Shown: positions 631-21,549 of the stretch, one piece after another
How positions within the stretch are numbered: position 1 is the stretch's first letter
Layout of the letters: each line of letters starts with the position of its first letter
Source: Fibrobacter succinogenes subsp. succinogenes S85
GTDB lineage: Bacteria > Fibrobacterota > Fibrobacteria > Fibrobacterales > Fibrobacteraceae
DNA: 32,000 bases
Reading direction: 5' to 3'
Assembly (NCBI RefSeq): GCF_000146505.1
Contig: NC_017448.1
Span: 1,650,001-1,682,000 of the forward strand
Position numbers and translations under genes: made by a program
The notes under the pieces: model-generated
What the model was told of the DNA's origin: nothing
The model's database searches: none
The model's input: the letters and a program-made list of their open reading frames with translations, nothing else

Positions 631-639
631 ATTTTCGCG

Positions 640-644: not shown

Positions 645-654
645 GGCGCAGTTA

Positions 655-2949: not shown

Positions 2950-2961
2950 CAATGATATAAT
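2933..2961 (+). promoter_or_regulatory. Candidate sigma70-type promoter for the wzc-like gene (-35 ATAACA, 17-nt spacer, -10 TATAAT)
   Basis: A perfect TATAAT at 2956-2961 lies 60 nt upstream of ATG 3022. ATAACA (4/6 to TTGACA) sits at 2933-2938, giving a 17-nt spacer. It lies in the sppA/wzc divergent region. Promoter rules of the host are unknown, so this is weak. Confidence 0.2.
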
Positions 2962-3021
2962 AGAAAAATTGCTATTTTGCTTCACGAGTGTAGGAAACAA
3001 TTTTAACATAGTGGTGGTTAT

Positions 3022-5118
3022 ATGAGTTCATCTTCGAAAAAAGAAGAAACTGACCTTTTTGACTTGTTGAAGGAGCTGGCAAGAAATTGGAAAATCATGA
3101 TTCCGTGCGTCATTGTCGCCGGAATTGTAGGCGTTTTTGTCGCCATGTGGATTAGGCCTGTCTATAAAGTAGACGCATTGCTCCAGATTGAATCAAAGAA
3201 TAACAAGAGCATGGGCATGACAGGCGGCCTCAGCAGCCTGTTTGCCACAACAAGCCCCGCCGAAACAGAAATCGAGCTCATCAAGAGCCGTCACATCATC
3301 GGCGACGCCGTCGAAAAGATGAATTTGCTGTACGTGGCAACACCAATCAACAAACTTGACCGCCTGCTGCATCGTGAAGGCCGCATGGAACTCAGCCGAT
3401 TTGAAAGGCCCGAATCAAGCATTCAAAAGAACAAAAAAATTATTCCATGGGTTGCTGTAGCTACAGACAGCGCCTCCTTTGACCTATACGATCACCATAA
3501 TCAGAAAATCCTCTCGGGAGCCGTTGGTACAACATATCGGTTCCCTTATGCAAACGACACCGCATGCATCCACATTTATCGCATGGATGCCACTCCGGGG
3601 CAGAAATTTGAAATCGTCAAGGAAGAACGCCTCGATGCCATTGACGAATTCAAGAAAGCATTTGATATCAAGGAAAAAGGCAAAAAGACTGGCATTCTAG
3701 AATTCAGCTACCAGGATATCTATCCCGACCGCGCCACAAAAGTTCTAAACGAAATCGCAACGTCCTATTTAAGACAGAATGTTGAACAGCGCAATGCCGA
3801 AGCCCAAAAGACATTGGAATTTTTGGAAAAGCAGTTGCCCGATGTCAAAGCAAAACTGGATAGTTCTCTCCTGAAGTTCAACACCTACCGCAATAAAGTC
3901 GGTTCCGTAGACATTGGCGCCGAAACGCAGCTCATCCTAGAAAAACGCAACAAGTTGCAGCAAAGCTTGCTTGAGTTGCAGCAGAGAAAGCAGAGTGCCG
4001 TCCGCCTGTTCCAGCCGGAACATCCGACAGTCAAGACCTTAGAAGATCAGGAAAACAACTTAAAGCGCGAGCTCGCCAACAACTATGCCGCCACCAAGAG
4101 GCTCCCGAACACCCAGCAAGAAGTCCTGAAGTTGACGAATGAAGTCGACATGAGCAAGCACATGTATACGACCATGCTCAACAACATTCAGCAGTTGAAG
4201 CTCGTGTCCGCCGGTGAAGTAGGTTCAGTGCGCATTATCGACTTTGCCGAAAAAGTCACGAAGCCCATAAAGCCGAAAAAGAGCCTCATCGTTTGTATCG
4301 CCTTGTTCCTCGGTCTGCTCCTTGGAGCTGCAATCGTATCCATCCGCAGCAAGTTCAGCAACGGTGTTCGCGACGCAAGCTTTATCGAACGTGAAACAGG
4401 ATTCAGCGTCTACGCGAAAGTTCCCAAAGGCAACCCCAACGGCACCAAAGGCACTCGCCCACTTGCAGTTGTCGAGCCGGACGATGTTGCAGTGGAATCC
4501 ATCCGTGCATTGCGCAGTTCACTTGAATTCAGCATGGAAGAAGACAGCCGCCCCGTTATCGGAGTCAGCGGGCTTATCCCAGGTGTAGGCAAGAGCTTTA
4601 TTTCCGTAAACCTCGCCGCACTTTATGCAGGTCTCGGCAAAAAGGTCTTGCTTATCGACGCGGACCTCCGCAAGGGCCGCCTGCACAAGGAATTCGGCAT
4701 CAAGCGAGGGAAAGGCCTTTCTCAGATTCTCCTTGGCGAAGCTACTGTAGACAACGTTGTTCAATCCACCGAAGTCGACAACCTGTTCGTCATGCAATGT
4801 GGTAACGTGCCACCCAACCCATCTGAACTGTTGGGTTCCAAGCACTATTCAACAATGATCAGCGAACTGGAAAAGGCTTACGACCTAATCATCGTCGATA
4901 CACCGCCAATCATGCTCGTGACAGACGCCGCCCTTGCCTGCCGTATCGCATCCCAGATCGTCATGGTCATCGAATACAACAAGCACAGTATCGAAGCAAT
5001 CCAGGACGGTATGAAGCAGTTGCTCAAGGGAAATACCACCGCACATGCAAGCTTCGTCATCAACAAGTACGAACACGGGCATAGCGATGGCTACGGATAC
5101 AAATATGGGAAGTATTAA
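3022..5118 (+). CDS. wzc: Polysaccharide co-polymerase / BY-type tyrosine autokinase (Wzc/Etk-like, PCP-2a)
   Basis: N-terminal Wzz-type region has TM1 ([19 protein letters not shown]), a long coiled-coil periplasmic segment ([13 protein letters not shown]...) and TM2 ([21 protein letters not shown]). The kinase domain shows Walker [11 protein letters not shown], Walker A' [11 protein letters not shown], Walker [10 protein letters not shown] and a C-terminal tyrosine cluster GYGYKYGKY. Confidence 0.9.
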
Positions 5119-6137
5119 TTTTTCAGATACAGGACTAAACGGTCAAATATTTTCTGTAACCCAAATCTAGGCTGCCACGCGAGCTTTCTAAGCTTAGCCG
5201 TATCCAGCCTTAATTTGGTTGGAGGAGCATACCCCTGGTTTTCGTCTATTTCAATTTTGACTCGGATATCAGGATTAACTTTTTCGCAAACGAATTCCGC
5301 CATTTCCTTTGCCGATATATACGTCAATTCATTGGCAACATTATAGCATTCCCCATTCCCGCCATTCAAAAGAATGTGGAGAATTGCCGAAATGGCATCC
5401 GTGACATAGCAGTAAGGCCTTGCGGATTCACCAGTCGAATGGAGCACAATATCTTGGCCTAGAGAAGCAAGGCGTGCAAACTGTGCTATTATACGGTTAT
5501 CATCCTTTGCGATGCCAGCCCCCGTCGTCTGGGTCAACCTAGCTACCTTTACAGGGACCCCATATTCTGCAGCATACAGGCAACACATATTTTCAGTCGC
5601 ACGCTTCGCCATCGGGTAGCTGCTACGAACCGATACAGGATCCAAATAGCCCTGAAATCGTTCATCAATAGCCTTGGAATCGTCAAGTGTTTCACCATAA
5701 ACTTCAAGAGAAGACAGATAAACCATTCCCTTGATCTGTTTTTTTTGAGCTAGTTGCAACATTGTTTTTGTGCCATCCATGATAATTTCAAAAGTTTCCA
5801 CAGGATGTTCCACAAAAAATTTGCTCGACGTTGGCGCAGCACAATGGACTATGAAATCAATTTTACCTAGCGACTCATAATCATAGTGCGTGATGTCACA
5901 TTCTATAAAATGGACCTTTTCTATTTGAGAAGCGTCAAACAGTGTTTCCACTTTTTTCAAGTTTCTCACCGGAGCAAAAATTTTCACCTGCTTGTCAAGG
6001 GCCAGCAAGCAACGAATAAGAGATGAACCAATAAGTCCCGTAGCTCCGGTTATCAAAAAAGTCGAATTTTCAAGGCTATTACTTAATTCAAAATTCTTCG
6101 CAAAATCAAGGACGTCTTCGCAAACAATTTTATTCAT
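5115..6137 (-). CDS. NAD(P)-dependent extended SDR (epimerase/dehydratase/reductase family); candidate CDP-ketose/alditol-phosphate reductase partner of the adjacent cytidylyltransferase
   Basis: Rossmann motif ITGATGLIGSSL, catalytic YxxxK (YPMAKRATE), 340 aa. It lies 2 bp downstream of the IspD-like gene. Its stop codon overlaps the wzc stop (TTAA at 5115-5118). Confidence 0.75.
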   Translation of the reverse strand: MNKIVCEDVLDFAKNFELSNSLENSTFLITGATGLIGSSLIRCLLALDKQVKIFAPVRNLKKVETLFDASQIEKVHFIECDITHYDYESLGKIDFIVHCAAPTSSKFFVEHPVETFEIIMDGTKTMLQLAQKKQIKGMVYLSSLEVYGETLDDSKAIDERFQGYLDPVSVRSSYPMAKRATENMCCLYAAEYGVPVKVARLTQTTGAGIAKDDNRIIAQFARLASLGQDIVLHSTGESARPYCYVTDAISAILHILLNGGNGECYNVANELTYISAKEMAEFVCEKVNPDIRVKIEIDENQGYAPPTKLRLDTAKLRKLAWQPRFGLQKIFDRLVLYLKN

Positions 6138-6139
6138 AA

Positions 6140-6862
6140 TTAAAATCCAAATATCTGCTGATTTTCGTGTACTTCAACCATGGCCCTAAAAATAAAGAAG
6201 TCGGTTGGAGTCGTAATCTTGATATTCTCCATCGGTCCAATAGCAGTATTTATCTGGAAACCGTAATGACTCATCATGGTGCAAGAATCAATAAAGTCAT
6301 GGCGATTTTCAGCAATTGCCTTTTCGTGGGCGCCCAAAATGTCTGTCAAGATAAAACATTGTGGAGCTCTTGCAATCAGGGAATTCGCTCGTGACGGGAT
6401 TTCTAAAGATCCATCTTCTTGCTTGACGACAAATGTTTCCGTAGCGGGGATGCAGATAACGCAGTTTCCCTTTTCATTGGTCGTAGCAATGCAGTCCGAA
6501 ATAGTCTTTTCCTTAATCAGGGGGCGAACACCATCATGAATAAGGACATTGCATTCTTCCCCAAGATGTTTCTTAGCGGCAACCAATCCGTTATAAATGG
6601 AATCCTGCCCAGTTGAGCCTCCAGGCACCACCGCCACAACCTTGCTGATTTCAAATTTGTTCAGCTGTTTCTTTAAGAAAGGAATCCAGGATTCGATGCA
6701 CACAACAACAATGCCATCTATCTGCGGATGGTTATCGAACAATTCCAAGGTATAAATAATGATGGGCTTGCCATTCAATTCAAGGAACTGTTTTGGCCTG
6801 GAAACCGTATTCATACGCATTCCAGTTCCACCAGCGAAAATGACAGCAACATTCTTTCTCAT
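6140..6862 (-). CDS. IspD/TarI-family cytidylyltransferase (CDP-alditol synthesis, e.g. ribitol-5-phosphate cytidylyltransferase-like)
   Basis: IspD-family landmarks appear in order: VIFAGGTGMRM, PKQFLELNGKPI, GGSTGQDSIYNGL, HDGVRPL, APQCF, NIKITTPTDF. Length 240 aa. Context is an SDR downstream and a TagF-like transferase upstream. Confidence 0.85.
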   Translation of the reverse strand: MRKNVAVIFAGGTGMRMNTVSRPKQFLELNGKPIIIYTLELFDNHPQIDGIVVVCIESWIPFLKKQLNKFEISKVVAVVPGGSTGQDSIYNGLVAAKKHLGEECNVLIHDGVRPLIKEKTISDCIATTNEKGNCVICIPATETFVVKQEDGSLEIPSRANSLIARAPQCFILTDILGAHEKAIAENRHDFIDSCTMMSHYGFQINTAIGPMENIKITTPTDFFIFRAMVEVHENQQIFGF

Positions 6863-6865
6863 ACG

Positions 6866-7759
6866 TTACCTCATATTCCTACTTTCAAGATATTTTAAAA
6901 CGCCATGCGGATCGTCCGTAAAGAATACACTGAATCCATGGTCTATCAGCCAACCATAACTGGCTTCAACATCGCTCAACGCCAGCTGGTCGTTTCGGCC
7001 ACCATTGCAGCAAGAACCAAGCAAGGTATCAACCCAAAGCCTATTGCCTTTTTTGGAATACTTCTTGACCGCTTTTAAAATGGATAACGTATCCGAAGGA
7101 AAAGCAATGTAATATCCAATGGGTTTCATCTTTCTCTGCAAATCCGAGAAACGCTTTTCGTCGTTTAAGCCATTGCATTGCAGAAACGGAGCATAATTAA
7201 CCTCAGGATACTGCTTTACCAATTTGTATGCATCGGATTCCATATTCGTGGTACCCGCCAGTAAAATTTGTCTGTCCATACCATGTTTATGAACTATTTC
7301 AAGAACCGCTTCTTTATGGTCTTGCCATTTATCCACATAAATAAGGATTTTTCCCTTCGAAAGTTCCAAGATTTCTTCAAACGTGGGAACTCGTTGGTCG
7401 GAAACATAGTTGGTCGGAGTCTTTAACTTGTATTCTTTTATTTCGGCCAAGGTAAGGTCAGAAACCTTTCCCCTTCCCGTCGTTGTACGGTTTATGGTTT
7501 CATCATGCATAATGACAAGGACACTGTCCTTTGTCATGCGAACATCCACCTCAATGGCGTCAAATCCTGTCTTGATGCAATTTTCAAAACCCCTAATCGA
7601 ATTTTCCGGAGCATAGCGCCAGTCACCGCGATGAGCAATAATCATCGCATAGTTGTGCGGCCCCTTTTCATGGAGCTTATTCAGCAAAAAGTCAATCCTA
7701 TCTTCTGCAGCCGAAAGCAACGCAGACAGAGACAACAGCAAAAACACCAACCGTTTCAT
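6866..7759 (-). CDS. Exported glycerophosphodiester phosphodiesterase family protein (GDPD; GlpQ/UgpQ-like)
   Basis: Signal peptide MKRLVFLLLSLSALLSAAED. GDPD catalytic motifs IIAHRGDWRYAPENS and IEVDVRMTKDSVLVIMHDETINRTT. Length 297 aa. Confidence 0.85.
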   Translation of the reverse strand: MKRLVFLLLSLSALLSAAEDRIDFLLNKLHEKGPHNYAMIIAHRGDWRYAPENSIRGFENCIKTGFDAIEVDVRMTKDSVLVIMHDETINRTTTGRGKVSDLTLAEIKEYKLKTPTNYVSDQRVPTFEEILELSKGKILIYVDKWQDHKEAVLEIVHKHGMDRQILLAGTTNMESDAYKLVKQYPEVNYAPFLQCNGLNDEKRFSDLQRKMKPIGYYIAFPSDTLSILKAVKKYSKKGNRLWVDTLLGSCCNGGRNDQLALSDVEASYGWLIDHGFSVFFTDDPHGVLKYLESRNMR

Positions 7760-9130
7760 TTATGCATTTTCCTTCTTTTTCGGCATTTTCAAAGAATCAA
7801 GTAGGTACTCATAAATAGCGACCGAAGCTCCGTTTGGATTTTGCGGACGCAGATACGCATCGACAAAAGCATAACGTTCTTCCTTCATATAGTCATCACC
7901 ATCAATCACGACTTGCTTGATGAACTTCTCGATTTCCTTACCTTTTTCAGAGGTGTAGATGTGATCCAAAATAGCCTTGCCACATTCATTCCAATCACGA
8001 ACTACACCTGGATTTGCAATCAGGAACAGCATCGGCTTATAGGTACTGGTATACTCCGCCGTAAAGGAGCCACAATCCTGAATCATCGCATCCGACGTGA
8101 GGAATAAATCAACATATTCATCTAGGCAAACCTGCGTATTGGGCATTGTCTCCCACAACTTGTAATACGCTTCACGGCGTTCCTTATTCCAGCCGGGGAT
8201 TGCAGAATCCAGTTTCTTGGCAAGCTCTGGATGCGGCTTAAAAACGAACTGAACTTCGTCTGCATATTTTTTAGCCATTTCAACCATAAAGTCGCAAATA
8301 TCCAAAAAATTTGCACAACGATTCTTTTCCAGCATGTGGTGGTGCGGAGCCCAGATAATCCTTTTCTTCTTTTTCTCCTGAGGTTTCCAGACATCAACTG
8401 GAGGCTTCCTCGGGAAAAAGAATTCATCCAAAAGGGGATAACCAGAAGCAACAGCGTTCACCCCCTTGTTGATTGCATGTTCCTTTGCCATCTGGACATG
8501 CAACGGGGTTTCATAAAAGATCTTCCAAAGTTTGTTATGGAAGTCCCTGTTAAAATGTTCAATATAACGGTTGCTGATCATCCAGGCGTAAGGGACGTAA
8601 GCCTGCAAGCAATCCATATTCCGTTCATAGCCAAAGTCCACGAAGCGGCCATATTCATGCCAGCAATTCATATGGAACAAAATATCGGGATTCAACTCCT
8701 TAGCCTCGGCCCTCGACAGGACACGATTTTCTTTTTCGGAATAGGGCAAAAAGACATTGTAGCCGCGGTCCTTGAAATAGCGATAAACCTGTAGCATGTG
8801 CGGAACAAAGTTGCTTTGAATAATAGCACCGGCTGCGTAAGGCACAACCACGATATATGGGTTGAAACGGCTGTCTTTTTCCAGGAGCCGATAAATGCCT
8901 TCATATTTCCACTTGTTCGTTTCCAGGATATAAAAGGCGACATTGATTTTTTCACCACGAGAAGCCTTCGCCTGAACATTCTGCAAGACATTCTCGTATT
9001 TTGCCGGCAAGTCGTCATACTTATGGCGCAACAAAAAATTTCTCAGCAAAGAATAAGCCTTTGTTAATATTATCTTGTTGTAGATGACGATTTCGTAATA
9101 ACGAATCTTATTCTTCAGATTAGACATCAT
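7760..9130 (-). CDS. CDP-alditol/CDP-glycerol polyol-phosphate transferase (TagB/TagF/TarL-like, Glyphos_transf family)
   Basis: The C-terminal half carries the family pattern as I remember it: IIWAPHHH (cf. ilYAPTwR), FKPHPE, and DLFLTSDAMIQDCGSFTAEYTSTYKPMLFL (cf. sD.lITDYSS..fdf..l.kP). ATGA start/stop overlap with the upstream GT (9127-9130), and zero gap to the GDPD gene. Confidence 0.72.
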   Translation of the reverse strand: MMSNLKNKIRYYEIVIYNKIILTKAYSLLRNFLLRHKYDDLPAKYENVLQNVQAKASRGEKINVAFYILETNKWKYEGIYRLLEKDSRFNPYIVVVPYAAGAIIQSNFVPHMLQVYRYFKDRGYNVFLPYSEKENRVLSRAEAKELNPDILFHMNCWHEYGRFVDFGYERNMDCLQAYVPYAWMISNRYIEHFNRDFHNKLWKIFYETPLHVQMAKEHAINKGVNAVASGYPLLDEFFFPRKPPVDVWKPQEKKKKRIIWAPHHHMLEKNRCANFLDICDFMVEMAKKYADEVQFVFKPHPELAKKLDSAIPGWNKERREAYYKLWETMPNTQVCLDEYVDLFLTSDAMIQDCGSFTAEYTSTYKPMLFLIANPGVVRDWNECGKAILDHIYTSEKGKEIEKFIKQVVIDGDDYMKEERYAFVDAYLRPQNPNGASVAIYEYLLDSLKMPKKKENA

Positions 9131-10850: not shown

Positions 10851-10852
10851 AG

Positions 10853-12199
10853 TTATTCGTCATCCTCATCAGTTTCGCCGGTTTCAGCTTTTTCCGCATC
10901 TGATTCAGCCTTTTTATCGCAAGCACCATCTTCTACTTTTGCGGGATTCCAAAATTTTGAGATAAGAAGCCAAAATACAATAGCGTACGACAAATCGATA
11001 AACACATCCTGCAAAAAACCATAACCAAAAATGCCCCACAAGACAATGACTCTGGCGTAGTAATACAAAAGGAAATGGGACAAAAGCGGATTACTAATCT
11101 TTTTGGCAAGCCACCCGGCGGCTATAGTCAACAAGGCTACGACAAAAGCCCCGATTGTACCAAACTCAAGATACAAATCCCCAAAGAGAGTCTTGAAATA
11201 ATACATGTTCACTCGGTAGACGTTACTCCAAAATTCTCGGACCGCGTCTACGCCATACTTTGAATCCGGGAGTTCAAACCCACCAAACCATTCCAGCAAT
11301 TTCGGGAAGAATCGAAGCCCATACGTATGGATATCTGTCGAATCCCAATAAACCAGTCCCAAATTTAAGAAGGGTTCCCCAAAATAGCGCATTATTCTGT
11401 TCAACGCAACATCGACATCACCATCGACACGGGCAAAAGAAATGATTATCGCATAAAAGCCCAACAAGCCCAACACGGCAAACGCTATACCATAGATTTT
11501 TTTCTTGATGTCTACAGGAATCTCGTCCTTGAAATTCGTGTAAATATAGACAAGGGCAAAGAAATTGAAAAACAAGGATCCACGGCTTCCCTGTAAAACA
11601 GAGGGTGTGACGGTCGCTCCAAAACCGACAATCAAAAGAAATAACGCCATCATCGATTTTTGGTTCTTTACAATCCGGTAAAACTGCAAATAGAGAAAAA
11701 TCGGCATCACACAGATGGACAAACGTCTAAAAACCTTAGACAGAATCATTTCGATATCGGAACCATACTTTTGCCCCAGATCTCCGGAAACACTCATATG
11801 GTACGCATCGCCCAAGTCACTTGCCGCCCCTAGCTGATACCCTTCCAGGAAAAAGAACAGGTGTCCCAGCATAAAGAAAAGAAAAATCTTTGAAAACAAG
11901 GACACCCTCTGGGCATCCCACCCTATTTCAAATTTGGGAACAACCTTCAACGGGCTCATCACCCCCATCATCATGATAAACATGAGAAAATAGGGAAGAT
12001 AGCTCAAATACTCTAGACTTCTGGAATCGCGTATTTCTTCCTGGTATAAGCCAATATCGAATACATACGCCCCCATGCAAGAAACAACAGCGTACAGTCC
12101 TATAGAAAATAAATAAAAGGCGCTATATTCACTTTTCTGCTTATAGCACCATGCAAACCACACTATATACAGGAATGCATTAGTTAAGAATACTTCCAT
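10853..12199 (-). CDS. wzy: Multi-pass membrane protein, probable repeat-unit polymerase (Wzy-like / O-antigen polymerase-type)
   Basis: 448 aa, hydrophobic throughout with many TM-like segments and no soluble catalytic domain. It sits between the GTs and wzx, as in Wzx/Wzy loci. It has an unusual acidic C-terminal tail (AESDAEKAETGETDEDDE). The family call rests mainly on context. Confidence 0.55.
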   Translation of the reverse strand: MEVFLTNAFLYIVWFAWCYKQKSEYSAFYLFSIGLYAVVSCMGAYVFDIGLYQEEIRDSRSLEYLSYLPYFLMFIMMMGVMSPLKVVPKFEIGWDAQRVSLFSKIFLFFMLGHLFFFLEGYQLGAASDLGDAYHMSVSGDLGQKYGSDIEMILSKVFRRLSICVMPIFLYLQFYRIVKNQKSMMALFLLIVGFGATVTPSVLQGSRGSLFFNFFALVYIYTNFKDEIPVDIKKKIYGIAFAVLGLLGFYAIIISFARVDGDVDVALNRIMRYFGEPFLNLGLVYWDSTDIHTYGLRFFPKLLEWFGGFELPDSKYGVDAVREFWSNVYRVNMYYFKTLFGDLYLEFGTIGAFVVALLTIAAGWLAKKISNPLLSHFLLYYYARVIVLWGIFGYGFLQDVFIDLSYAIVFWLLISKFWNPAKVEDGACDKKAESDAEKAETGETDEDDE

Positions 12200-12286
12200 A
12201 CCGTCATCGTAAAAACAGACTACAACATCCCGTTATCAAGATGTCTAATGTAGCGAAAATATATAAAATATGCGAATCGCTTTTTA

Positions 12287-13744
12287 TCAGCGGCTCTTTC
12301 CGAAATGGATTTTCTGCATCATTTTACGCAGTTCCGTTACCACAAGCTCATTCTTGTTGAATTTCAGGTTTATCAACGCAAAGATACAGGCCATGAGCAA
12401 GCCTTCTACAGCAATCCGTAACCCATACGGGACTTCTAAATAACAGCTAAAAACAATCGGCACCGGGAGATAGCATAACGCCCAGCCGATGTTCTTCAAT
12501 AGGATTTTCGCGTCAAATACAAGGCCCAGGATTTTTTTCACCAGGTACATTCCAACAACAAGAACAGACAATTCAGACAAGCCCCAGGACATCGCAGAGC
12601 CAACGGCCCCCAAACGAGTCGTCAATACAATATTGCCAAGAATGCCAATCACAGCACCGACGGAACTGACTATGAAAATGGACTTGTTCGATGTCGAAGC
12701 CATCAGGAATTGCTGAATAACAATTTGCTCCATTCCAATAATCAGCAACAGGAAAATAACGATTTTAAACGGCAAAATGGCACCTTCATAACCATTACCC
12801 GCAATAATGAAAATAATTTCATCGGCGCAGAACAGGCAGGCAATAATAATGGGCAACGAGACAATGGTCAAAATATTAAATGTATCATCTGCTATCTTTT
12901 GAATTTTTTCGCGATTTCCATCACTCAACAATTCACTAACCTTGGGGACCATCACATTGGTAAAAGCAGTAAAAACACCCATTAGGATACTATACATCTT
13001 CGTTGCTGTTGCAAAGTAGCCAACTTCCTTATCCCCAGAACAAAACCCAAGAAATACCATATTGAACGAAGTATACATATAGGTCAGCATACGATAATAC
13101 CCAAACACCAGAACAGGCAATATGAAGATTCTAAAGCTGACCTGGGATAATGAAAATGTTCTAAATTTTTTCGAATAATTCCAATTCCACAAGGCGTTCA
13201 CAAAAACAGATCCCACTGTCAATGCGTAGTAGATTATAGCATCATCTGGAGAGCGAATAAAGGCAAAAACGCCTACAACATAAAGAAAGCGAACCGCAAT
13301 AGTCCTAAGCGTTATATATTTGAATTCCTGCAAGCCCTCAAAAAGCCATTCTATCAAAAATAAGCTAAAGAATAGCTTTACAAGCCCTATCCAAAGAAAG
13401 TCCCTATATACTTGAAGACTGGGGACATAGAGCGTGCAAAGGACGAGTACCACAACAGCAATAATGGTACCGACAAAGTTAATCGCCATCAGGCTTGAAA
13501 AGGTCTTATTTCTCCGTTCAAGATTACTTTTGCACCTTGCAATTTCGCGAACGCCAAAAGAGCCAACGCCTAAAGTAGAAAAAAGGACGAAATAATCAAT
13601 CAGACTATCGACAAAATTGCATATACCGATATTGCTTACACCAAGAACTCTCGATACATAAGGATATGTAATTAAAGGGAAAAGGTACTTACTTAAAGTA
13701 AGCAACAAGTTATATGCAAAATTCTTTTTGACTGATTTGGGCAT
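12287..13744 (-). CDS. wzx: Oligosaccharide-unit flippase (Wzx, MOP superfamily polysaccharide biosynthesis protein)
   Basis: 485 aa and about 12-14 hydrophobic segments. The N-terminus KKNFAYNLLLTLSKYLFPLITYPYVSRVLGVSNIGICNFVDSLIDYF is typical of PST-family flippases. Confidence 0.82.
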   Translation of the reverse strand: MPKSVKKNFAYNLLLTLSKYLFPLITYPYVSRVLGVSNIGICNFVDSLIDYFVLFSTLGVGSFGVREIARCKSNLERRNKTFSSLMAINFVGTIIAVVVLVLCTLYVPSLQVYRDFLWIGLVKLFFSLFLIEWLFEGLQEFKYITLRTIAVRFLYVVGVFAFIRSPDDAIIYYALTVGSVFVNALWNWNYSKKFRTFSLSQVSFRIFILPVLVFGYYRMLTYMYTSFNMVFLGFCSGDKEVGYFATATKMYSILMGVFTAFTNVMVPKVSELLSDGNREKIQKIADDTFNILTIVSLPIIIACLFCADEIIFIIAGNGYEGAILPFKIVIFLLLIIGMEQIVIQQFLMASTSNKSIFIVSSVGAVIGILGNIVLTTRLGAVGSAMSWGLSELSVLVVGMYLVKKILGLVFDAKILLKNIGWALCYLPVPIVFSCYLEVPYGLRIAVEGLLMACIFALINLKFNKNELVVTELRKMMQKIHFGKSR

Positions 13745-13761: not shown

Positions 13762-14592
13762 CTAATCATCATCGAAGAATCGGACGACAACATTATGCGT
13801 TTGAATTTTGTCATCTTCAGGAACTTTATTCCAATCCCCATAAAGGTCTGTAAGATAGGCATCAACATTACAGGGAGCACAAAACATGGAACCTTCAAAT
13901 TCAATACGCCCTATCGGGAAAATATACTTCTTGTATCTTTTTTCATCCCAAGGCGCTCCATAAGGCAATCTGTAATAATCATTTCTTTTATGGTATATGA
14001 ATCGCAAAAGGGGCGGGATGATTTTTTTTATTACCACATAATTTAACGGCAACAACGGTCTCAAAATTTTTGCAATTATCGAAGATGATAATATAACACG
14101 TTGAACCGCTTTTTCATAACAGAACATCATCTTTTTACAAAAAAAATCGCTTACTTGGTCATCCTGATAAAAAATATCCACCTGCACACCTCGATATTTT
14201 CTCATTTTGTGAAGCGGAGAATCCTGCAAATATTCACTTTTCAAATCACGTAGCACATCCCACGTAGAGTAAAAACCGCTATCAGTTTCATCGCACTGCA
14301 GCACAAACTCTTTACTAGGATTTTGCGTAAGCATTATTTTTTTAAACTTTAGATAACTCTCCCTGGTCATACAAATATCCACATCGTCATCCCAAGGAAT
14401 AAAGCCTCCATGCCTAGCGGCACCCAGCAAGGTTCCGCAATCTAGCCAATAGTCAATTTCATTTTCCAAACAGATGCCGTCTATAAACTTAAGCATTTCA
14501 AGCATCCGAAGTTGAGCCCGACGCAAAATTGATCCATCAGGATTAAAGCGCTTTCGAAATTTAGCTTGCAAATCTCGATCAATCATCAGCAT
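13762..14592 (-). CDS. licD: LicD-family phosphotransferase (transfers a phospho- or phosphono-headgroup, or alditol-phosphate, from a CDP/CMP-activated donor)
   Basis: DYWLDCGTLLGAARHGGFIPWDDDVDICM is the LicD nucleotidyltransferase-fold signature including DxD. Length 276 aa. It lies between the phosphonate module and wzx. Confidence 0.85.
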   Translation of the reverse strand: MLMIDRDLQAKFRKRFNPDGSILRRAQLRMLEMLKFIDGICLENEIDYWLDCGTLLGAARHGGFIPWDDDVDICMTRESYLKFKKIMLTQNPSKEFVLQCDETDSGFYSTWDVLRDLKSEYLQDSPLHKMRKYRGVQVDIFYQDDQVSDFFCKKMMFCYEKAVQRVILSSSIIAKILRPLLPLNYVVIKKIIPPLLRFIYHKRNDYYRLPYGAPWDEKRYKKYIFPIGRIEFEGSMFCAPCNVDAYLTDLYGDWNKVPEDDKIQTHNVVVRFFDDD

Positions 14593-14630
14593 CTCCTCAT
14601 TTGTCCATGTTATTTCAAATGCAGGTGGCT

Positions 14631-15812
14631 CTACTTTTTCGGTGCAAACGGCTCGATGATGTTCTTGATGATAAAGTCGGCCGTCTTCTCGATATCCTCG
14701 AACGCAACGCGTTTCGGCAAGTCGACGTTGAAAGCCTTCTTCACCTTCGCGACGAGTTCGTCGGTATAGACGAGCGTGCCGTTTTCCACATTCTCAATAC
14801 CGTCGCAGTAGATGGACTTGCGGTTCGCGGCACGCATGTCATCCATACTGAAGAGCGTCGTATCGAACGTAACTTCCGCCTTTGCGCCATCGATAAGCAC
14901 CGGGTAGCCGCCGATTTCGCCATTGACACCGGGAGCATGCACCTTGGTCACCGTCTTTTCGCGGAGAGCCGTCAAGATGGAATCGATGATGTTGAAATTG
15001 CTCGAAGCGTTCATCATGTTGCGCTTCTGGTCCACCGGCATCGGGATGGAGCAGGCAGCCAGCACTTCGGTCTGGTCAAACGGCAAATCTTTGCCATCCT
15101 TCTTGAAGTTCAAGAGCAGCGTCTGGCCTTCAGCATGGCCTTCCTTCGAAATCACCACATCGTGGAAATGGCTCACGGCGAGCGTCACATCGATATCGTT
15201 CAAGTTGTCGATGTTGTACTTTTCGGCCATAAAGAACTTCATGCGCGGAATGAGGTGGTTCAGGTTGCCGCTACCAAAATCAAAATATGTCTTACCGGCG
15301 GACTTGAGCCAAGGAATCACTGCGTCGGAATACGAGGTATTGATGGTCACTGCATTGGAGCCCACCTTTTCGTAGGCGGCCATGATATTTTTCGCATAAC
15401 GGATAGAGAGCGGAGACCAAATGCCGTAAGCGCGCAGGTTGCTCCACGAGATGCTTCCGTACTTGAGTCCGGAATAGACGCGGCTGCTGTTCACGATAAA
15501 GTCCGGATTCGCCTTCTTGATTGTCGCGGCGATGCTGTCGACATCGTTCAAATCGCAGTCACCGAGAATTTCAATCTGGCTACGCAGTTCACGACGGATT
15601 GTCGCCGCCGTGCGAACGATGTTCACATCCATCTGCATCTTGGCTGCATTGCGGCCAGCAACCACAATTTTCAGCTGCGGGTCACGGAGACTCACCAAAA
15701 AGTCGAGCAGGAACGTACCGACGCTCCCGAGCCCAATAATCATAATCGTAATCGTCTCGTTCTTTTCGACCTTGGACTTGAGCAAGGCTATTTTCTTGTT
15801 CAGGATTTCCAT
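14631..15812 (-). CDS. NAD(P)-binding two-domain oxidoreductase, saccharopine/carboxynorspermidine-dehydrogenase-like (tentative)
   Basis: N-terminal Rossmann GxGxxG (IMIIGLGSVGTFL) followed by KIVVAGRN. Length 393 aa. No PLP, ThDP or metal motifs seen. The family assignment comes from overall layout and memory only. Coding status is strong: it reads in phase, with tight spacing inside the operon. Confidence 0.5.
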   Translation of the reverse strand: MEILNKKIALLKSKVEKNETITIMIIGLGSVGTFLLDFLVSLRDPQLKIVVAGRNAAKMQMDVNIVRTAATIRRELRSQIEILGDCDLNDVDSIAATIKKANPDFIVNSSRVYSGLKYGSISWSNLRAYGIWSPLSIRYAKNIMAAYEKVGSNAVTINTSYSDAVIPWLKSAGKTYFDFGSGNLNHLIPRMKFFMAEKYNIDNLNDIDVTLAVSHFHDVVISKEGHAEGQTLLLNFKKDGKDLPFDQTEVLAACSIPMPVDQKRNMMNASSNFNIIDSILTALREKTVTKVHAPGVNGEIGGYPVLIDGAKAEVTFDTTLFSMDDMRAANRKSIYCDGIENVENGTLVYTDELVAKVKKAFNVDLPKRVAFEDIEKTADFIIKNIIEPFAPKK

Positions 15813-15815
15813 ATC

Positions 15816-16559
15816 TTACTCCATAAGTTCGCGAACAATGTTGTAGTCCGCAACGGTGTTACAGTTATACCAGGCATCAAACGTGACCACATCATATTCT
15901 TCACGGGAAAGCTTGTTGAAATACGCCTGGATAATCTCGAGATTCGTTCCCTGAAGTTGCTTTTCCGTCAAGGAAGCGACAGCCTCGTGCAGCTTTTCTG
16001 CCGACCGGAACTTCCACATCTGCGCAGAATTGAATACCGCGAGGAACGGCTCCGGAATCGTGAGCGAAGAATGGTTCGTGTCGTATAGGTAATGCGGACG
16101 GCCATCCGTCGATACGTAAAGAGCCACGGCCTTGTTCGAATAAATGGGTTCGCGATTGATCGTGAGCACGCTCTTTTCGCTGTCGTAGACCTTCTTGAAA
16201 TTTTCCTTCAAGAAGAACAGGTCACCTTCAACGAACGTGACATCACCCGGTTCCTTCACGGCCTCGATGCCCTTGTACAGGCTATAGCCCGAGCCGTAAT
16301 CCTTGAAGTGCTCGTTATAGACAAGTTCAATCTTATCGCCATACACCTGAAGATTCTGCTTCACGTATTCTTCGAGAGCGGAATAGAGGTAGCCGCCCAC
16401 GATGATGTACTTGTCGTATTCGCCGCAATTTTTCAAAAGCTGCGGCAAAAGAGCAAACTTCGGAGAATCCTTATAATAAAGGCACTTCAGGGTTTCCTTT
16501 TCGGTATCCCTGTTAAAGCGGGTTGCCGTCCCGGCAACAGTAATAATCAGGTATTTCAT
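15816..16559 (-). CDS. LicC/IspD-fold nucleotidyltransferase (candidate phosphonate or phospho-headgroup cytidylyltransferase, PntC-like)
   Basis: N-terminal IITVAGTATRF is the G-x-G-t-R-f/l NTP-binding loop. Internal NEHFKDYGSGYSLYKG and an acidic EGDLFF motif. Length 247 aa. ATGA overlap with the upstream SDR stop (16556-16559). Confidence 0.62.
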   Translation of the reverse strand: MKYLIITVAGTATRFNRDTEKETLKCLYYKDSPKFALLPQLLKNCGEYDKYIIVGGYLYSALEEYVKQNLQVYGDKIELVYNEHFKDYGSGYSLYKGIEAVKEPGDVTFVEGDLFFLKENFKKVYDSEKSVLTINREPIYSNKAVALYVSTDGRPHYLYDTNHSSLTIPEPFLAVFNSAQMWKFRSAEKLHEAVASLTEKQLQGTNLEIIQAYFNKLSREEYDVVTFDAWYNCNTVADYNIVRELME

Positions 16560-17554
16560 CTTTCAATACTCTTTACGCACATTTCAAGGCCTTCTTCCAG
16601 CGTAACGACCGGTTTCCAGTGCGTACGCGTACGGATCTTGTCTGTGTTGAGCAGGCGGCGTTCCGGGTCGGACTTGCGATAACCTTCGAACTTGATTTTC
16701 ACATCGTCCATGCCCATCTTCTTCGCAATCAGTTTCACGAGATCCACGATGGAAATTTCTTCTTCGGTCGCGACATTATAGACGGTACCGTCGAGCGCTT
16801 CCGGCGATTCCATGAGTTCCATCACGGCGCGGCAGCTGTCGATATTGTGGAGGAACGTACGCTTGTTGACCTTCGAGTTTTCGAGCAGCGTGACCTGCGG
16901 CTTTTCAAGAAGGTTGTTGATGATGTGCGGGATGATATGGTCCGCAAAGCGTTCATGCTTGCTGTAGACGTTGGCAAAGCGGATCGAGCAGCCCTTGATT
17001 TTGCCCTTGTCCACAGCATCCTTCATGAAGAATTCCGTGAGGAGCTTGCCGACAGCGTAGCTTGTGCGCTGGCTGTGTTCTGCTGTGGCCATCACCAGGA
17101 AGTCTGATTCACGAACGCCACCATTCGCATTCCAGGACTGCATGGAATAAACTTCGGAAGTCGAGCAGTTGATGTAGGTATCCGCACCAAGAGCGATCGC
17201 CATTTCCAAGAACGTCTTCATCGAGATGACGTTTGTAAGGAACGTGTGTTCCACTTCGTAGAAATGCTTCGTATGCACGACTGCGGCGCAGTTGATGAAA
17301 ACCAGGCGGCCGGAATAAGAGCCTTTGAGACTCTTCACCTTGTCGGCGACAGCGGCCATGTGTCCGGCATTGTTGATGTCGTATTCAAAAAAGATATAGT
17401 CATCACGACCGACCAAGTCCTTCACCGTATCGATAGAACTGGCAAAGAAGTTGTCAAAACCGACAACGATGTTTTCTTCTTTCAGCAGTTGGTGCGAAAG
17501 TTCACTGCCGGTCATGCCTGTAGCACCACTTATGACATACAGATTTTTCTTCAT
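16556..17554 (-). CDS. NAD(P)-dependent extended SDR (epimerase/dehydratase/reductase family)
   Basis: VISGATGMTGSEL (GxxGxxG), catalytic YxxxK (SYAVGKLLTE), 332 aa. Confidence 0.8.
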   Translation of the reverse strand: MKKNLYVISGATGMTGSELSHQLLKEENIVVGFDNFFASSIDTVKDLVGRDDYIFFEYDINNAGHMAAVADKVKSLKGSYSGRLVFINCAAVVHTKHFYEVEHTFLTNVISMKTFLEMAIALGADTYINCSTSEVYSMQSWNANGGVRESDFLVMATAEHSQRTSYAVGKLLTEFFMKDAVDKGKIKGCSIRFANVYSKHERFADHIIPHIINNLLEKPQVTLLENSKVNKRTFLHNIDSCRAVMELMESPEALDGTVYNVATEEEISIVDLVKLIAKKMGMDDVKIKFEGYRKSDPERRLLNTDKIRTRTHWKPVVTLEEGLEMCVKSIER

Positions 17555-17567
17555 GTTAAGCCTCTGT

Positions 17568-18296
17568 TTAAATTCCTAAAGTCAGACGATCCTTGTAGAA
17601 TACATCTACCTCGTCCGTATAAAGATCCTGTTCCGCCACGATATCGTACGGAACGCAAACATGCTCGTATTCCGTCGTTTCGGTATCGAGAATCCCGAAC
17701 TGCGCGCAGGGATTGATATTCCGCGGCTGCCCGACAGAACCGGGATTAATAAAAACCGTTTTTTTCTTGTTTCTCGTGCTCGGGGAATCCGCCTTGAAAA
17801 GCACCTCGAAGTAGTGGCACACATGGGAATGCGCAGTCAAGACATAATCGAATTCCGCGTATTCTTCGCGAGTGAGTTCCACAGGTGTAAACTTGCCCCA
17901 ATACGGGTCGCCCAAGATGCCATGCACCAGCAGGAACTTCTTGCCGTCAATTTCCAGGGAACAAGTGCCATCGCGATTCATCTTGTTATTGATAAAGTCG
18001 ATGGACTCCTGAGAGAGGCGCTTTTGCGTATAGTGGAGGATAGCGCGCCCGCGGTCTGTCGCGAATCGGGTCGTGTCGTTGTCCATGACAGCCTTCTCGT
18101 GGTTTCCCCAAATCTTCGCAACAAACTTGTCATCCATACCGCGAATCATGTCCACGATTTCGTTCGGGCGCATGCCGTAATTGACAAGGTCTCCCAGCAA
18201 CACGAATTTGTCGACATGGCGACGTCTAATTTCTTCGAGCACCGCATTCAATGCAGTCACGTTCGCATGGATATCCGACAGCAGGGCGAGTCGCAT
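17568..18296 (-). CDS. Calcineurin-like metallophosphoesterase (YfcE/MJ0936-type, Metallophos_2)
   Basis: All metallophosphoesterase motifs appear in order: LSDIH (DxH), LLGDLVNYG (GDxxxxG), WGNHE (GNHE), LVHG, TAHSH (GH-type), NPGSVGQPR. Length 242 aa. 2-bp spacer to the ppd stop. Confidence 0.82.
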   Translation of the reverse strand: MRLALLSDIHANVTALNAVLEEIRRRHVDKFVLLGDLVNYGMRPNEIVDMIRGMDDKFVAKIWGNHEKAVMDNDTTRFATDRGRAILHYTQKRLSQESIDFINNKMNRDGTCSLEIDGKKFLLVHGILGDPYWGKFTPVELTREEYAEFDYVLTAHSHVCHYFEVLFKADSPSTRNKKKTVFINPGSVGQPRNINPCAQFGILDTETTEYEHVCVPYDIVAEQDLYTDEVDVFYKDRLTLGI

Positions 18297-18298
18297 TT

Positions 18299-19426
18299 TT
18301 ATTTCCTCAGGAACTCCATAAGAGCGTTCTTGTTCTCGATAGGCGTCGTTGTCGGACGGCCCAGATCCTTGCGGTTACCCTTCTTCACCTTGACTTCGAG
18401 GAGCACGGGGCCCTTCATGCCCTTGAGCTTTTCGAGCACAGCAGCAAGCGATTCCTTGCTATCGGCGGTCAGAGCATCACGGTATCCCACGGCACGGGCA
18501 ACAGCAGGCAGGTCAATCTTCAAACCTACAGTCGGCTGGCCACCCACGGAGTCGTGTGCGCCGTTGTTGAATACCACGTGGACGTAGTTTGCGGGGGACT
18601 TGCTTGCGACAATCGCCATGGAACCCATGTGCATGATGGTCGCACCGTCGCCATCAAAACACCAGACCTTGCGGTCGTCCTTTTCCATCGCAATGCCAAG
18701 CGCAATCTGCGAGGCATGTCCCATGGAGCCCACCGTCAAAAAGTCACGTTCGTGACCTTCCCCCTTCTGGGCGCGGTATTCAAAAAGTTCACGGCTGATC
18801 ATGCCCGTCGTAGAGACAATGACATCCTTTTCGCCAAGCGAGGCCGCCACCGTCTGGATAGCTTCTTCGCGGCTCATCGTGAGGTCATTTTTCTCGACGC
18901 TCTGGAGTTTGTAATCCTCGAATGTGTCCTTTTCGATGACGAGCGCGTAGACCTCGCCCGTTTCCTTCATCGTCTTGACGGCCTTCGCGATCTGCTTCGT
19001 AGCCTTGTCCTCTTCCTTGCAGAGTACATCGTAGTTCACGCCCATCGTGTTCAAAATCCCGGTCGTCACCTTGCCCTGCTTCACGTGCTGCGGCTCGTCA
19101 TGAACGCCCGGGCGGCCACGCCAGCCAATCAAAAGCAGCACAGGAATGTTATAGACTTCCTTGTCCGTAAGCGATGCGAGCGGATTGATGATGTTCCCTT
19201 CGCCGGAATTCTGCATATAGACAACGCCAATATTACCCGTCGCGAGATGATAACCAGCGGCTAGCCCCACGGCGGCGCCTTCGTTCGCGGCGATCACGTT
19301 GTGCTTCGCGTCCATGTGATCCGCGATATAGGCGCAAATATTCTTGAGCAAGGAATCGGGAACGCCGGCATAAAAATCAATACCGTAAGAGCCAAGCGTG
19401 TCGATAAAAAACTTCGGAGAGATCAT
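18299..19426 (-). CDS. aepY: Phosphonopyruvate decarboxylase (ThDP-dependent)
   Basis: N-terminal FYAGVPDSLLK motif is typical of Ppd/AepY. ThDP motif GDG...NN is present (CFDGDGATIMHMGSMA...VVFNNGAHDSVGGQ). Length 375 aa. It lies immediately (2 bp) downstream of the PEP mutase gene. Confidence 0.9.
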   Translation of the reverse strand: MISPKFFIDTLGSYGIDFYAGVPDSLLKNICAYIADHMDAKHNVIAANEGAAVGLAAGYHLATGNIGVVYMQNSGEGNIINPLASLTDKEVYNIPVLLLIGWRGRPGVHDEPQHVKQGKVTTGILNTMGVNYDVLCKEEDKATKQIAKAVKTMKETGEVYALVIEKDTFEDYKLQSVEKNDLTMSREEAIQTVAASLGEKDVIVSTTGMISRELFEYRAQKGEGHERDFLTVGSMGHASQIALGIAMEKDDRKVWCFDGDGATIMHMGSMAIVASKSPANYVHVVFNNGAHDSVGGQPTVGLKIDLPAVARAVGYRDALTADSKESLAAVLEKLKGMKGPVLLEVKVKKGNRKDLGRPTTTPIENKNALMEFLRK

Positions 19427-19428
19427 GA

Positions 19429-20739
19429 TTACTTCTTCATCGTTCCGGGAATAAGGTTCAAAATCTGCTTGATAGGCATGCAGTAGTCGTTTGAAGCTTC
19501 GAGGCTACGGCTGTGCGTAAGGATGGACTCCGCACACTTCACCATCGCCGGGTATGCAGACCTAAGCATGTGGTTTGCATAGATGACAATGTTGATACCC
19601 CAAGTCGAAAGTTCCTCTTCAGTAAACTGGTTGTAGGTCGTGGGTACTGCAACAATCGGCGTATGAGCGTCCTTCTCGCGGAAACGCTTGCAGAATTCCT
19701 TGATGTCTTCGCCGCTTTTGTCCTTGGAATGGATCATGATGCCATCAGTACCGGCGGCCACGTAGGCATGGCAACGTTCCAAGGCATCGTCCACGGACTT
19801 GCCCGCAATGAGCGATTCGCAGCGGGAGATCACCATGAAGTCGTCCGTAATCTGGGCTTCCTTGCCCGCACGTATTTTTGTGCAGAAACCTTCAATCGTA
19901 TCCTGCGATTGAATAGCATCTGTACCAAACAGAGAGTTCTGTTTGAGGCCAACCTTGTCTTCAATGATGACCGCAGAAATGCCAAGGCGTTCGAGCGTGC
20001 GCACAGTAAAGCCAAAATGTTCGACCTTTCCACCCGTATCGCCATCAAAGATAACCGGCTTTGTCGTGACTTCGAGCGTATCATTCAAGTCATGCAGACG
20101 AGTCGTAAGGTCCACAGCCTCGATATCCGGCTTCCCCTTACTCGTGGAATCGGTGAGCGAAGAAGACCACATACCGTCAAACTCGCGAACGCAGCCGTTG
20201 ATTTCAACACTCGTATGTTCAGCAATCAAGCCCGTAAGGCCATTATGAGATTCCAAAATACGAACAATCGGCTTGGCCGCAATCAGGCGGCGCAGTGAAG
20301 AAAGTCTCGCCTGTGGTGTCGTACCGAGGCTATCCATTTCCTTTTTGAGGCCAGCAGAAGTAATGCCCTTGGTGTAAGGGATTTCAATAACCTTGCCACC
20401 TAAGGATTCCATAACCTTGAACACCTCGTCACGGATATACTTGTCCGGGCCGTAAAGCCAGTCATCACCATGAATGATATAGTCCGGCTTGTACCTCTTC
20501 AAGTTTTCAACATAACTCCATTCATCCTGGGGAACAATCTTTGATACGCCCTTGATGTTCTCGATGACGTTCTTGCGCTGCTCGTAATTCAGATACGGAA
20601 GGCGCTTGTGCGTTGCAATCGCCTTATCCGTAAAAAGTCCAATCATCACATCACCGTACTTTGCGCCTTCATTGATGATGTTGATAAGGCCCGGGTGCAT
20701 GATGTCACCAATCATTCCTAGATATACTGTTTTTGCCAT
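19429..20739 (-). CDS. aepX: Bifunctional cytidylyltransferase-domain / phosphoenolpyruvate mutase (Fom1/AepX-like architecture)
   Basis: Residues ~1-135 form a CTP_transf_like (TagD/CCT-type) domain: GMIGDIMHPGLINII (HxGH position reads H-P-G-L) and YTKGITSAG (cf. RTxGISTS). Residues ~145-436 form an isocitrate-lyase/PEP-mutase fold with the Ppm-diagnostic EDK-X5-NS (EDKVGLKQNS, nt 19933-19962; I verified the codons by hand). Length 436 aa. Confidence 0.92.
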   Translation of the reverse strand: MAKTVYLGMIGDIMHPGLINIINEGAKYGDVMIGLFTDKAIATHKRLPYLNYEQRKNVIENIKGVSKIVPQDEWSYVENLKRYKPDYIIHGDDWLYGPDKYIRDEVFKVMESLGGKVIEIPYTKGITSAGLKKEMDSLGTTPQARLSSLRRLIAAKPIVRILESHNGLTGLIAEHTSVEINGCVREFDGMWSSSLTDSTSKGKPDIEAVDLTTRLHDLNDTLEVTTKPVIFDGDTGGKVEHFGFTVRTLERLGISAVIIEDKVGLKQNSLFGTDAIQSQDTIEGFCTKIRAGKEAQITDDFMVISRCESLIAGKSVDDALERCHAYVAAGTDGIMIHSKDKSGEDIKEFCKRFREKDAHTPIVAVPTTYNQFTEEELSTWGINIVIYANHMLRSAYPAMVKCAESILTHSRSLEASNDYCMPIKQILNLIPGTMKK

Positions 20740-20776
20740 ATTTTACCACTAAAACTTTTTAAACTATAAAAAATCC

Positions 20777-21529: not shown

Positions 21530-21549
21530 ACAAATTTCTCTATCAGGCA

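Follow-up and report, generated by a model that had tools for sequence, protein, structure and literature searches.

How does a bacterium form the carbon–nitrogen bond of an N-substituted surface phosphonate when its phosphonate operon encodes no transaminase? This question is raised by a 32,000-nucleotide stretch of the Fibrobacter succinogenes subsp. succinogenes S85 genome (NC_017448.1, positions 1,650,001 to 1,682,000; the whole stretch is called the window hereafter), in which a phosphonate operon includes a gene for a 393-residue protein that NCBI lists as a 'hypothetical protein'. We refer to its product as the orphan oxidoreductase. Seven enzymes are known to carry phosphonopyruvate or phosphonoacetaldehyde onward, and about 13% of the neighbourhoods of ppm, the phosphoenolpyruvate (PEP) mutase gene, fit none of them (PMC8942020). 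The same paper, Li & Horsman 2022, places F. succinogenes (GCF 60) among the ppm neighbourhoods without a known branch-point enzyme and, citing Vinogradov 2001, attributes to this species an N-hydroxyethyl derivative of 2-aminoethylphosphonate (AEP). Its authors, who also describe archaeal families that share PF12850 and GDP-mannose-dehydratase-type domains, considered that the absence of AEP transaminase from the neighbourhood 'favours the reductive amination ... with ethanolamine' and named no enzyme. Our literature search found no later characterisation of the protein family considered here. A sequence-only reading of this DNA had pointed to the hydroxyethyl substituent, and the citation of Vinogradov 2001 in PMC8942020 bears it out; the strain, too, agrees, the protein encoded here being identical to that of S85. 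That reading also knew of no enzyme assigned to the step; none has indeed been named, but the reaction with ethanolamine had already been proposed in 2022.

The orphan oxidoreductase is the best candidate for a transaminase-free step toward N-(2-hydroxyethyl)-AEP on Fibrobacter surface glycans. Judging from sequence and genomic setting, we tentatively propose that it uses NADPH to condense phosphonoacetaldehyde reductively with an amine and so draws on the aldehyde pool, an assignment that we regard as possible but short of probable. The substrate, the amine partner and the type of reaction are what we infer for it; the resulting interpretation is plausible and partly anticipated in print, and it is not established.

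The gene itself is real. Its open reading frame (ORF), as called in the window, runs from an ATG to a stop codon, with GGAG 6 nt 5′ of the ATG, and begins 3 nt past the stop codon of the preceding DUF6564 gene. The predicted protein is 100% identical to ACX74593.1/ADL26937.1/WP_014545726.1 of F. succinogenes S85, which UniRef names 'saccharopine dehydrogenase NADP binding domain-containing protein'. A total of 3010 homologues were retrieved at E ≤ 1e-3; the best 120 of these share 66 to 96% identity with it, and none of the 120 bears a functional name. When 1.8 billion cluster representatives were searched exhaustively with a profile, only 473 matched at E ≤ 1e-3. A longer ORF of 495 codons on the opposite strand (14601–16088, plus strand, TTG start) spans the entire gene. 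It is unsupported when set against the thousands of homologues of the orphan oxidoreductase, and we take it to be a probable side effect of the high GC content at third codon positions (GC3) of the minus-strand gene.

The gene takes seventh place in a row of eight closely spaced genes, all read in one direction, with −4 to 38 nt between neighbours. In order, these encode a DUF4422 glycosyltransferase, a PF01467–PEP mutase fusion (Ppm), phosphonopyruvate decarboxylase (Ppd), a Metallophos_2 phosphoesterase, an extended short-chain dehydrogenase/reductase (SDR), a DUF6564 protein, the orphan oxidoreductase and LicD. Thus, as the sequence-only reading held, the gene is the last biosynthetic ORF before licD. 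All features of a cell-surface phosphonate (Pnt) cluster are present in this one operon, namely a Ppm with the EDKxxxxxNS motif, Ppd, a nucleotidyltransferase and LicD. Pfam and NCBIfam scans of the operon proteins detected no aminotransferase, iron-dependent alcohol dehydrogenase (Fe-ADH) or aldehyde dehydrogenase, which is in keeping with the transaminase-free route of the sequence-only reading. More specifically, neither the orphan oxidoreductase nor any other operon protein matches the known branch-point families PF00266, PF00465, aldehyde dehydrogenase or HMGL-like. The orphan oxidoreductase has the pathway position of the known branch-point enzymes, after Ppm and Ppd in a surface phosphonate cluster with a cytidylyltransferase and LicD, but no sequence relationship to AEP transaminase (PF00266), the Fe-ADHs PhpC and FomC (PF00465), the aldehyde dehydrogenase PhnY or the aldolase RhiG.

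The composition of the gene (GC 0.52, GC3 0.72) is that of the GC-rich ppm-to-orphan cassette, whose genes range in GC3 from 0.59 to 0.72, as had been noticed from the sequence. By comparison, GC3 is 0.36 in licD and about 0.40 to 0.51 in the other flanking glycan genes; the Wzx, Wzy and glycosyltransferase genes downstream lie at about 0.45 to 0.48. A sharp compositional step thus separates six cassette genes from the adjoining low-GC3 glycan genes (13762–21574), and this step makes the conserved head-group module look separate from the variable, low-GC glycan part of the locus.

Two enzyme families were considered as possible relatives of the orphan oxidoreductase. Carboxyspermidine dehydrogenase (CASDH) and saccharopine dehydrogenase (SDH) carry out NADPH-dependent condensation of an aldehyde with an amine. 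The single Pfam match of the orphan oxidoreductase, to PF03435 (Sacchrp_dh_NADP), spans residues 23 to 111 and falls below the gathering cut-off (23.5 versus 25.1 bits). Within a diverse alignment of 73 full-length representatives (A2), 54 of the 73 match this domain at E < 0.1, the best at 6e-9. The A2 profile finds Protein Data Bank (PDB) entries 8deb (1e-7) and 4ina and 4rl6 (3e-6) over profile positions 5 to 115 only, and hhalign against a Bacteroides CASDH gives a probability of 96% for residues 21 to 112 only. The likeness to this family (PF03435 plus PF16653; 8deb, 4ina, 4rl6) therefore lies in the first ~90 residues of an NADP-binding Rossmann domain. It extends to the basic residue after strand 2, where G-R-N of the orphan oxidoreductase lines up with S-R-T of the carboxyspermidine and saccharopine dehydrogenases, which are NADPH users, and to an overall length of about 400 residues. 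Past residue ~115 the proteins differ, and the C-terminal domain PF16653 (Sacchrp_dh_C) was matched by none of the 73 relatives. Neither the orphan oxidoreductase nor the 73 relatives match the octopine dehydrogenase C-terminal domain (PF02317) or the lactate dehydrogenase Pfam domains (Ldh_1_N/Ldh_1_C). Searches of the single sequence against NCBIfam, PHROGs and the PDB gave no match, and a shallow-profile PDB search matched only PPR repeats, which we judged spurious.

The remainder of the protein is nearest in predicted structure, though weakly, to the malate and lactate dehydrogenases (MDH/LDH). With an AlphaFold model of the whole protein (pLDDT 86.5, pTM 0.89), all 50 best Foldseek matches in the PDB are malate or lactate dehydrogenases, with E values from 6e-9 to 3e-7 and a TM-score of about 0.5. 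Residues 124 to 393 modelled alone (pLDDT 76) find MDH/LDH and one glycoside hydrolase family 4 protein only, at E values of at least 0.02 and TM-scores of 0.3 to 0.4. Neither list, the best 50 for the full model or that for the C-terminal domain, includes an SDH or CASDH structure. The A2 profile also matches L-lactate dehydrogenases over positions ~123 to 300 (whole-sequence E 6e-6 to 1e-3; per-domain E 0.1 to 0.5), and the alignment places YSD161–163, GSGN180–183, R190 and H215 on the LDH elements NPVD, GSGT, Arg171 and catalytic His195. When the profile was restricted to one of the two classes into which A2 divides (class I, which includes the orphan oxidoreductase; profile A4), the LDH matches in the PDB were gone, and hhalign against the single E. 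coli MDH gave a probability of 0.5%, which is not significant. Because the LDH match is lost with the class I profile, we did not adopt membership in the LDH/MDH superfamily. The protein is, moreover, about 80 residues longer than these enzymes, and the equivalent of LDH Asp168 is not conserved. Two segments modelled with low confidence (114–120 and 218–227) are invariant in sequence and recall the mobile LDH substrate loop; they are presumably mobile active-site loops.

Residues shared across A2 define a superfamily core: GxGxxG, Arg54 after strand 2, W132, N158, D163, G182-N183, H215 (71 of the 73 relatives), H292-P-G, GGYP301–304, N330 and D337-G. Class I additionally conserves R111, K117-Y118, H186, R190, C254 and R264-N265, which class II lacks, and the position equivalent to Asp168 is variable. 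The orphan oxidoreductase is thus composed of an SDH/CASDH-like NADP-binding half-domain and an orphan catalytic domain of ~280 residues whose nearest fold is LDH/MDH-like, and by defining features it is a member of neither family. The sequence-only description of the protein as saccharopine-dehydrogenase-like holds for the first ~90 residues and not for the catalytic part; assignment to an unrelated fold, which that reading had named as an outcome that would count against it, is partly what profile and structure comparisons gave. On the reading that we favour, the protein would be the first member of a putative family of two-domain oxidoreductases that use NADP(H) and serve specifically in the biosynthesis of phosphonate head groups.

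Conservation of the gene neighbourhood links this family to phosphonates. A scan of one genome per species yielded 78 loci, whose ORFs were searched with the window proteins, and the orthologues in them are 56 to 99% identical to the orphan oxidoreductase. These loci come from Fibrobacter (16), Bacteroidota (~33), Methanobrevibacter (17) and Clostridia (7); the others are single metagenome-assembled genomes (MAGs) of Treponema, Arcobacteraceae and Thermoguttaceae. Horizontal transfer has distributed the family among microbes of the rumen and gut, methanogens among them. The complete six-gene cassette, comprising the fused cytidylyltransferase–Ppm, Ppd, the phosphoesterase, the SDR, DUF6564 and the orphan oxidoreductase, is present in 62 of the 78 loci, and most exceptions are contig ends. 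The sequence-only reading had proposed just this check of co-occurrence with ppm and ppd, and the outcome is strongly in its favour. Within the cassette, the four genes from the phosphoesterase to the orphan oxidoreductase keep a constant internal order everywhere. In Methanobrevibacter and Lachnospiraceae this four-gene block has ppm on one side and ppd on the other, and in Hoylesella it precedes both. In one Lachnospiraceae MAG (L051 in our locus numbering, 7330–11173) the block occurs by itself, ppm, ppd and licD all being absent from the surrounding 7 to 10 kb; the flanks there carry ABC transporter, glutamate-synthase-like and MoxR/BatA genes.

An AEP transaminase has been added in only one locus, L034 from an Odoribacter MAG, and 61 of the 62 complete cassettes are without any AEP-forming enzyme. 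In L034, additional genes that lie after ppd and before the four-gene block (4786–7485) encode a hexapeptide acyltransferase, a class V aminotransferase and a PntC-like NTP_transf_3 protein, which indicates that the established pathway to AEP and the orphan module coexist there. Similar hexapeptide-type ORFs of ~240 residues occupy the same place in three other loci (L017, L020 and L073). Two copies are present in the Fibrobacter MAG RUG10152 (L011 and L014), one of which, L011, is reduced to Ppd, SDR and the orphan oxidoreductase and adjoins CotH kinase genes; a CotH kinase domain is likewise present in the 926-residue secreted protein of the window (Table 1). A Prevotella MAG contig (CAMHAM010000004.1) carries two complete cassettes ~20 kb apart (L036, 22349–43470; L039, 43455–64564).

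Distant relatives of the orphan oxidoreductase also tend to accompany phosphonate genes. Class I relatives at 30 to 35% identity are again found in phosphonate clusters, in all four of the informative contexts that have the Arg/Lys-rich set (L079, L080, L083 and L084). Locus L084 consists of cytidylyltransferase–Ppm, Ppd and a relative (~35% identity), and L080 has Ppd followed by a relative (35% identity) in a mobile-element-like stretch. The fact that these two relatives directly follow ppd without other tailoring genes suggests phosphonoacetaldehyde itself as the substrate of the family. In L079 the order is LicD, phosphoesterase, relative, class V aminotransferase and NTP_transf_3, and in L083 it is Ppd, Fe-ADH, further genes, SDR, DUF6564 and a relative. 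Elsewhere, L095 has the same four-gene block as the cassette with a relative at 32% identity, and L096 has a relative plus the phosphoesterase. Class II relatives adjoin genes for an aminotransferase and a HAD phosphatase, or a transaldolase-family gene, neither of which is a phosphonate context; these settings hint at alcohol or ketone chemistry on phosphorylated substrates.

Several of these distant loci have further features. The L080 sequence (1–12575, Logan SRR30173070) resembles a mobile element or phage, with genes for a helicase, a radical SAM protein, DUF1848 and HAD_SAK_2 nearby. The relatives in L085 and L095 lie among small or phage-like genes (gyrase B-like) with no PHROG family match. 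In L083 (4455–11089, JGI 3300051196) two alternative phosphonate cassettes seem to meet, the first consisting of Ppd, Fe-ADH and a truncated NTP transferase, and the second of a Ppd fragment, the SDR, DUF6564 and a relative; a B12-radical SAM gene and a methyltransferase gene are nearby. The class II examples without the Arg/Lys set are L089 (245–3779) and L090 (6902–9218), where the neighbours are Aminotran_1_2 and HAD phosphatase genes or a transaldolase/FSA gene on an actinomycete chromosome.

We reasoned that some enzyme of the cassette must use phosphonoacetaldehyde and that S85 must form the C-N bond without pyridoxal phosphate (PLP). Given these demands, the orphan oxidoreductase is favoured because its NADP-type Rossmann domain is related to that of enzymes that condense aldehydes with amines, because relatives can be the sole enzyme after Ppd, and because class I carries extra cationic residues (R111, K117, R190 and R264) suited to an anionic substrate. 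It is also favoured because the only other redox enzyme of the cassette, the UXS-type SDR, belongs to a group whose members keep NAD+ bound and usually work on nucleotide-linked substrates. This SDR is a less natural candidate for a reductive aminase using free NADPH.

A number of observations weigh against reductive condensation by the orphan oxidoreductase, and most of them bear on a different assignment, in which the protein is an atypical NADPH-dependent phosphonoacetaldehyde reductase that replaces the Fe-ADHs PhpC and FomC. It would then produce 2-hydroxyethylphosphonate (HEP), the Fom1-like domain of Ppm would form the cytidine monophosphate (CMP) conjugate CMP-HEP, and nitrogen, if any, would enter later, for example if the extended SDR oxidised CMP-HEP transiently. 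The ~280-residue catalytic part is unlike the saccharopine dehydrogenase C-domain, and the nearest folds of the model are dehydrogenases that reduce carbonyls to alcohols. In the A2 profile H215, which is invariant, falls on the catalytic His of LDH and R190 on Arg171, as would suit such a reductase, and the settings of class II relatives suggest an ancestral alcohol or ketone chemistry. The cytidylyltransferase fused to Ppm is a close homologue of Fom1 (E 3e-44 to structure 5x3d), whose known substrate is HEP (PMC6697681). However, the S85 head group described in PMC8942020 from Vinogradov 2001 has nitrogen, and the cassette has no transaminase; to reduce the aldehyde and then re-oxidise it for amination is unparsimonious and needs an unprecedented later amination. 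The LDH signal is also weak (E of at least 0.02 for the C-terminal domain, no match with the class I profile, 0.5% with E. coli MDH). Locus L083, where a relative stands beside an Fe-ADH, counts against HEP formation and against condensation alike. We consider formation of HEP by the orphan oxidoreductase, the main alternative to condensation, somewhat unlikely.

The presence of an AEP transaminase in L079 and L034 is a further difficulty for condensation, as the family is not needed for nitrogen supply there. It would fit better if the protein acted at a later step or on another partner, after a different enzyme had handled phosphonoacetaldehyde; it might alkylate AEP reductively with a 2-oxo acid or aldehyde (hydroxypyruvate or phosphohydroxypyruvate, for example), or perform redox tailoring of a CMP-linked phosphonate. 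Relatives occur alongside both AEP transaminase and PntC in these two loci, and an LDH-like pocket with an Arg171 equivalent would suit a 2-oxo acid. The four-gene block also moves as a unit, lies apart from ppm/ppd in L051 and persists at 32% identity in L095. Taken as a whole, such a later role is unlikely, given that 61 of the 62 complete cassettes have no AEP-forming enzyme and that the relative is the only candidate enzyme after Ppd in L080 and L084. It is very improbable that the gene is a mere neighbour unrelated to phosphonates that supplies the same polysaccharide with a different activated sugar or polyol. The window does hold a large polysaccharide cluster with other activation genes (the IspD-like and SDR pair listed in Table 1), and the block stands without ppm/ppd in L051. 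However, linkage to ppm/ppd is maintained across at least three bacterial phyla and archaea with differing flanks, the ppm and ppd of Methanobrevibacter and Lachnospiraceae enclose the block, and distant relatives directly follow ppd.

If reductive condensation is the correct assignment, a route to the head group can be outlined. Ppm and Ppd, judged by their family assignments, would produce phosphonoacetaldehyde, which the orphan oxidoreductase would join to an amine with NADPH; the secondary-amine C-N bond of N-(2-hydroxyethyl)-AEP would thereby arise with no need of a PLP transaminase. PntC/LicD systems serve as the model for the remaining steps, in which the product would be cytidylylated and LicD would move the head group to the glycan. 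Ethanolamine could be the amine, but a precursor that bears a phosphate or a carboxylate, for example phosphoethanolamine, serine or phosphoserine, is more likely. Condensation with free ethanolamine leaves the phosphoesterase, the SDR and DUF6564 without roles, which counts against this form of the proposal. Free ethanolamine fails to account for the strict co-conservation of the phosphoesterase and the UXS-type SDR, whereas every gene would have a role if the amine were phosphorylated, carboxylated or both.

In one speculative scheme of this kind, the whole cassette would convert phosphonoacetaldehyde and serine into N-(2-hydroxyethyl)-AEP without PLP. The orphan oxidoreductase would act as an opine-type synthase on phosphonoacetaldehyde and O-phosphoserine or serine with NADPH, the metallophosphoesterase would strip the phosphate, and a nucleotidyltransferase would form the CMP conjugate. 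The UXS-type SDR would then oxidise the serine β-hydroxyl, the carboxylate would be lost and the resulting aldehyde re-reduced to leave the hydroxyethyl arm, after which LicD would place the head group on the glycan. We hold this particular sequence of events to be doubtful.

Table 1. Features of the S85 phosphonate operon and of other parts of the window
Feature	Position	Strand	Supporting features
Second activation set of the locus (extended SDR, IspD-like cytidylyltransferase, secreted GDPD-DUF4996 protein, 456-residue protein)	5115..9130	-	
Extended SDR and IspD-like cytidylyltransferase, TarIJ-like	5115..6862	-	
LicD-family phosphotransferase	13762..14592	-	PF04991; low GC, variable part of locus
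Orphan NADP-type two-domain oxidoreductase, 393 residues	14631..15812	-	GLGSVG Rossmann motif 27–32, GRN 53–55
DUF6564 protein, LicC/PntC-like nucleotidyltransferase fold	15816..16559	-	Weakly LicC-like
Extended SDR, UXS/ArnA/UDP-glucuronic acid (UDP-GlcA) epimerase type	16556..17554	-	GxxGxxG, STSEVY, YxxxK
Metallophos_2 phosphoesterase	17568..18296	-	Intact DIH/GD/GNHE/HSH metal motifs
Phosphonopyruvate decarboxylase (Ppd)	18299..19426	-	TIGR03297, 523 bits
Bifunctional cytidylyltransferase–Ppm (N-terminal Fom1-like cytidylyltransferase, C-terminal PEP mutase)	19429..20739	-	5x3d; EDKxxxxxNS motif
Secreted protein, 926 residues	25114..27894	-	Lamin-tail domain, CotH kinase domain

The partner proteins have their own recognisable features. 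The PEP mutase domain of Ppm scores 403 bits with TIGR02320 and conserves IIEDKVGLKQNS, which corresponds to the EDKxxxxxNS motif; its PF01467 N-terminal domain is the one matched to Fom1. In the SDR, GxxGxxG, STSEVY and YxxxK are invariant, the latter two in 70 orthologues, and among the PDB structures that it matches are UXS1 and a UDP-GlcA epimerase. We take T-S-E, which this SDR has, to be the signature of UXS, ArnA and UDP-GlcA epimerases, with T-D-E being typical of 4,6-dehydratases. The closest solved relatives of the phosphoesterase are 3rqz and 3qfm. DUF6564 is always directly upstream of the orphan oxidoreductase within the four-gene block, and its likeness to LicC is weak. LicD is presumed to transfer the activated phosphonate head group onto the glycan. 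The 456-residue protein of the second activation set has no Pfam match.

The cassette also recalls the early steps of fosfomycin biosynthesis (the cytidylyltransferase–Ppm Fom1, Fom2, FomC and FomD, with transient cytidylylation), in that both sets comprise a cytidylyltransferase–Ppm fusion, Ppd, a reductase and a metal-dependent hydrolase. However, the reductase and hydrolase of the fosfomycin pathway belong to families unrelated to those of the cassette, and the LicD and second nucleotidyltransferase of the cassette point to glycan decoration rather than to a diffusible antibiotic.

The cassette is one of the orphan ppm neighbourhoods, and it is a tractable one, being present in a strain with a chemically defined, unusual product, conserved at 56 to 99% identity across taxa and limited to six head-group genes. 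Should phosphonoacetaldehyde be its substrate, the orphan oxidoreductase would bring the number of branch-point enzymes to eight, and its structure would be new among them. Assigning its reaction would add a branch point to phosphonate biosynthesis, define a new family of oxidoreductases and show how a secondary-amine phosphonate is formed without PLP. Should the serine scheme prove true, it would reveal a new early phosphonate branch point and a non-sugar use of UXS-like oxidative decarboxylation, common to rumen and gut bacteria and methanogens. Knowledge of the reaction would also allow surface phosphonate decoration to be predicted in many gut and rumen organisms, including methanogens.

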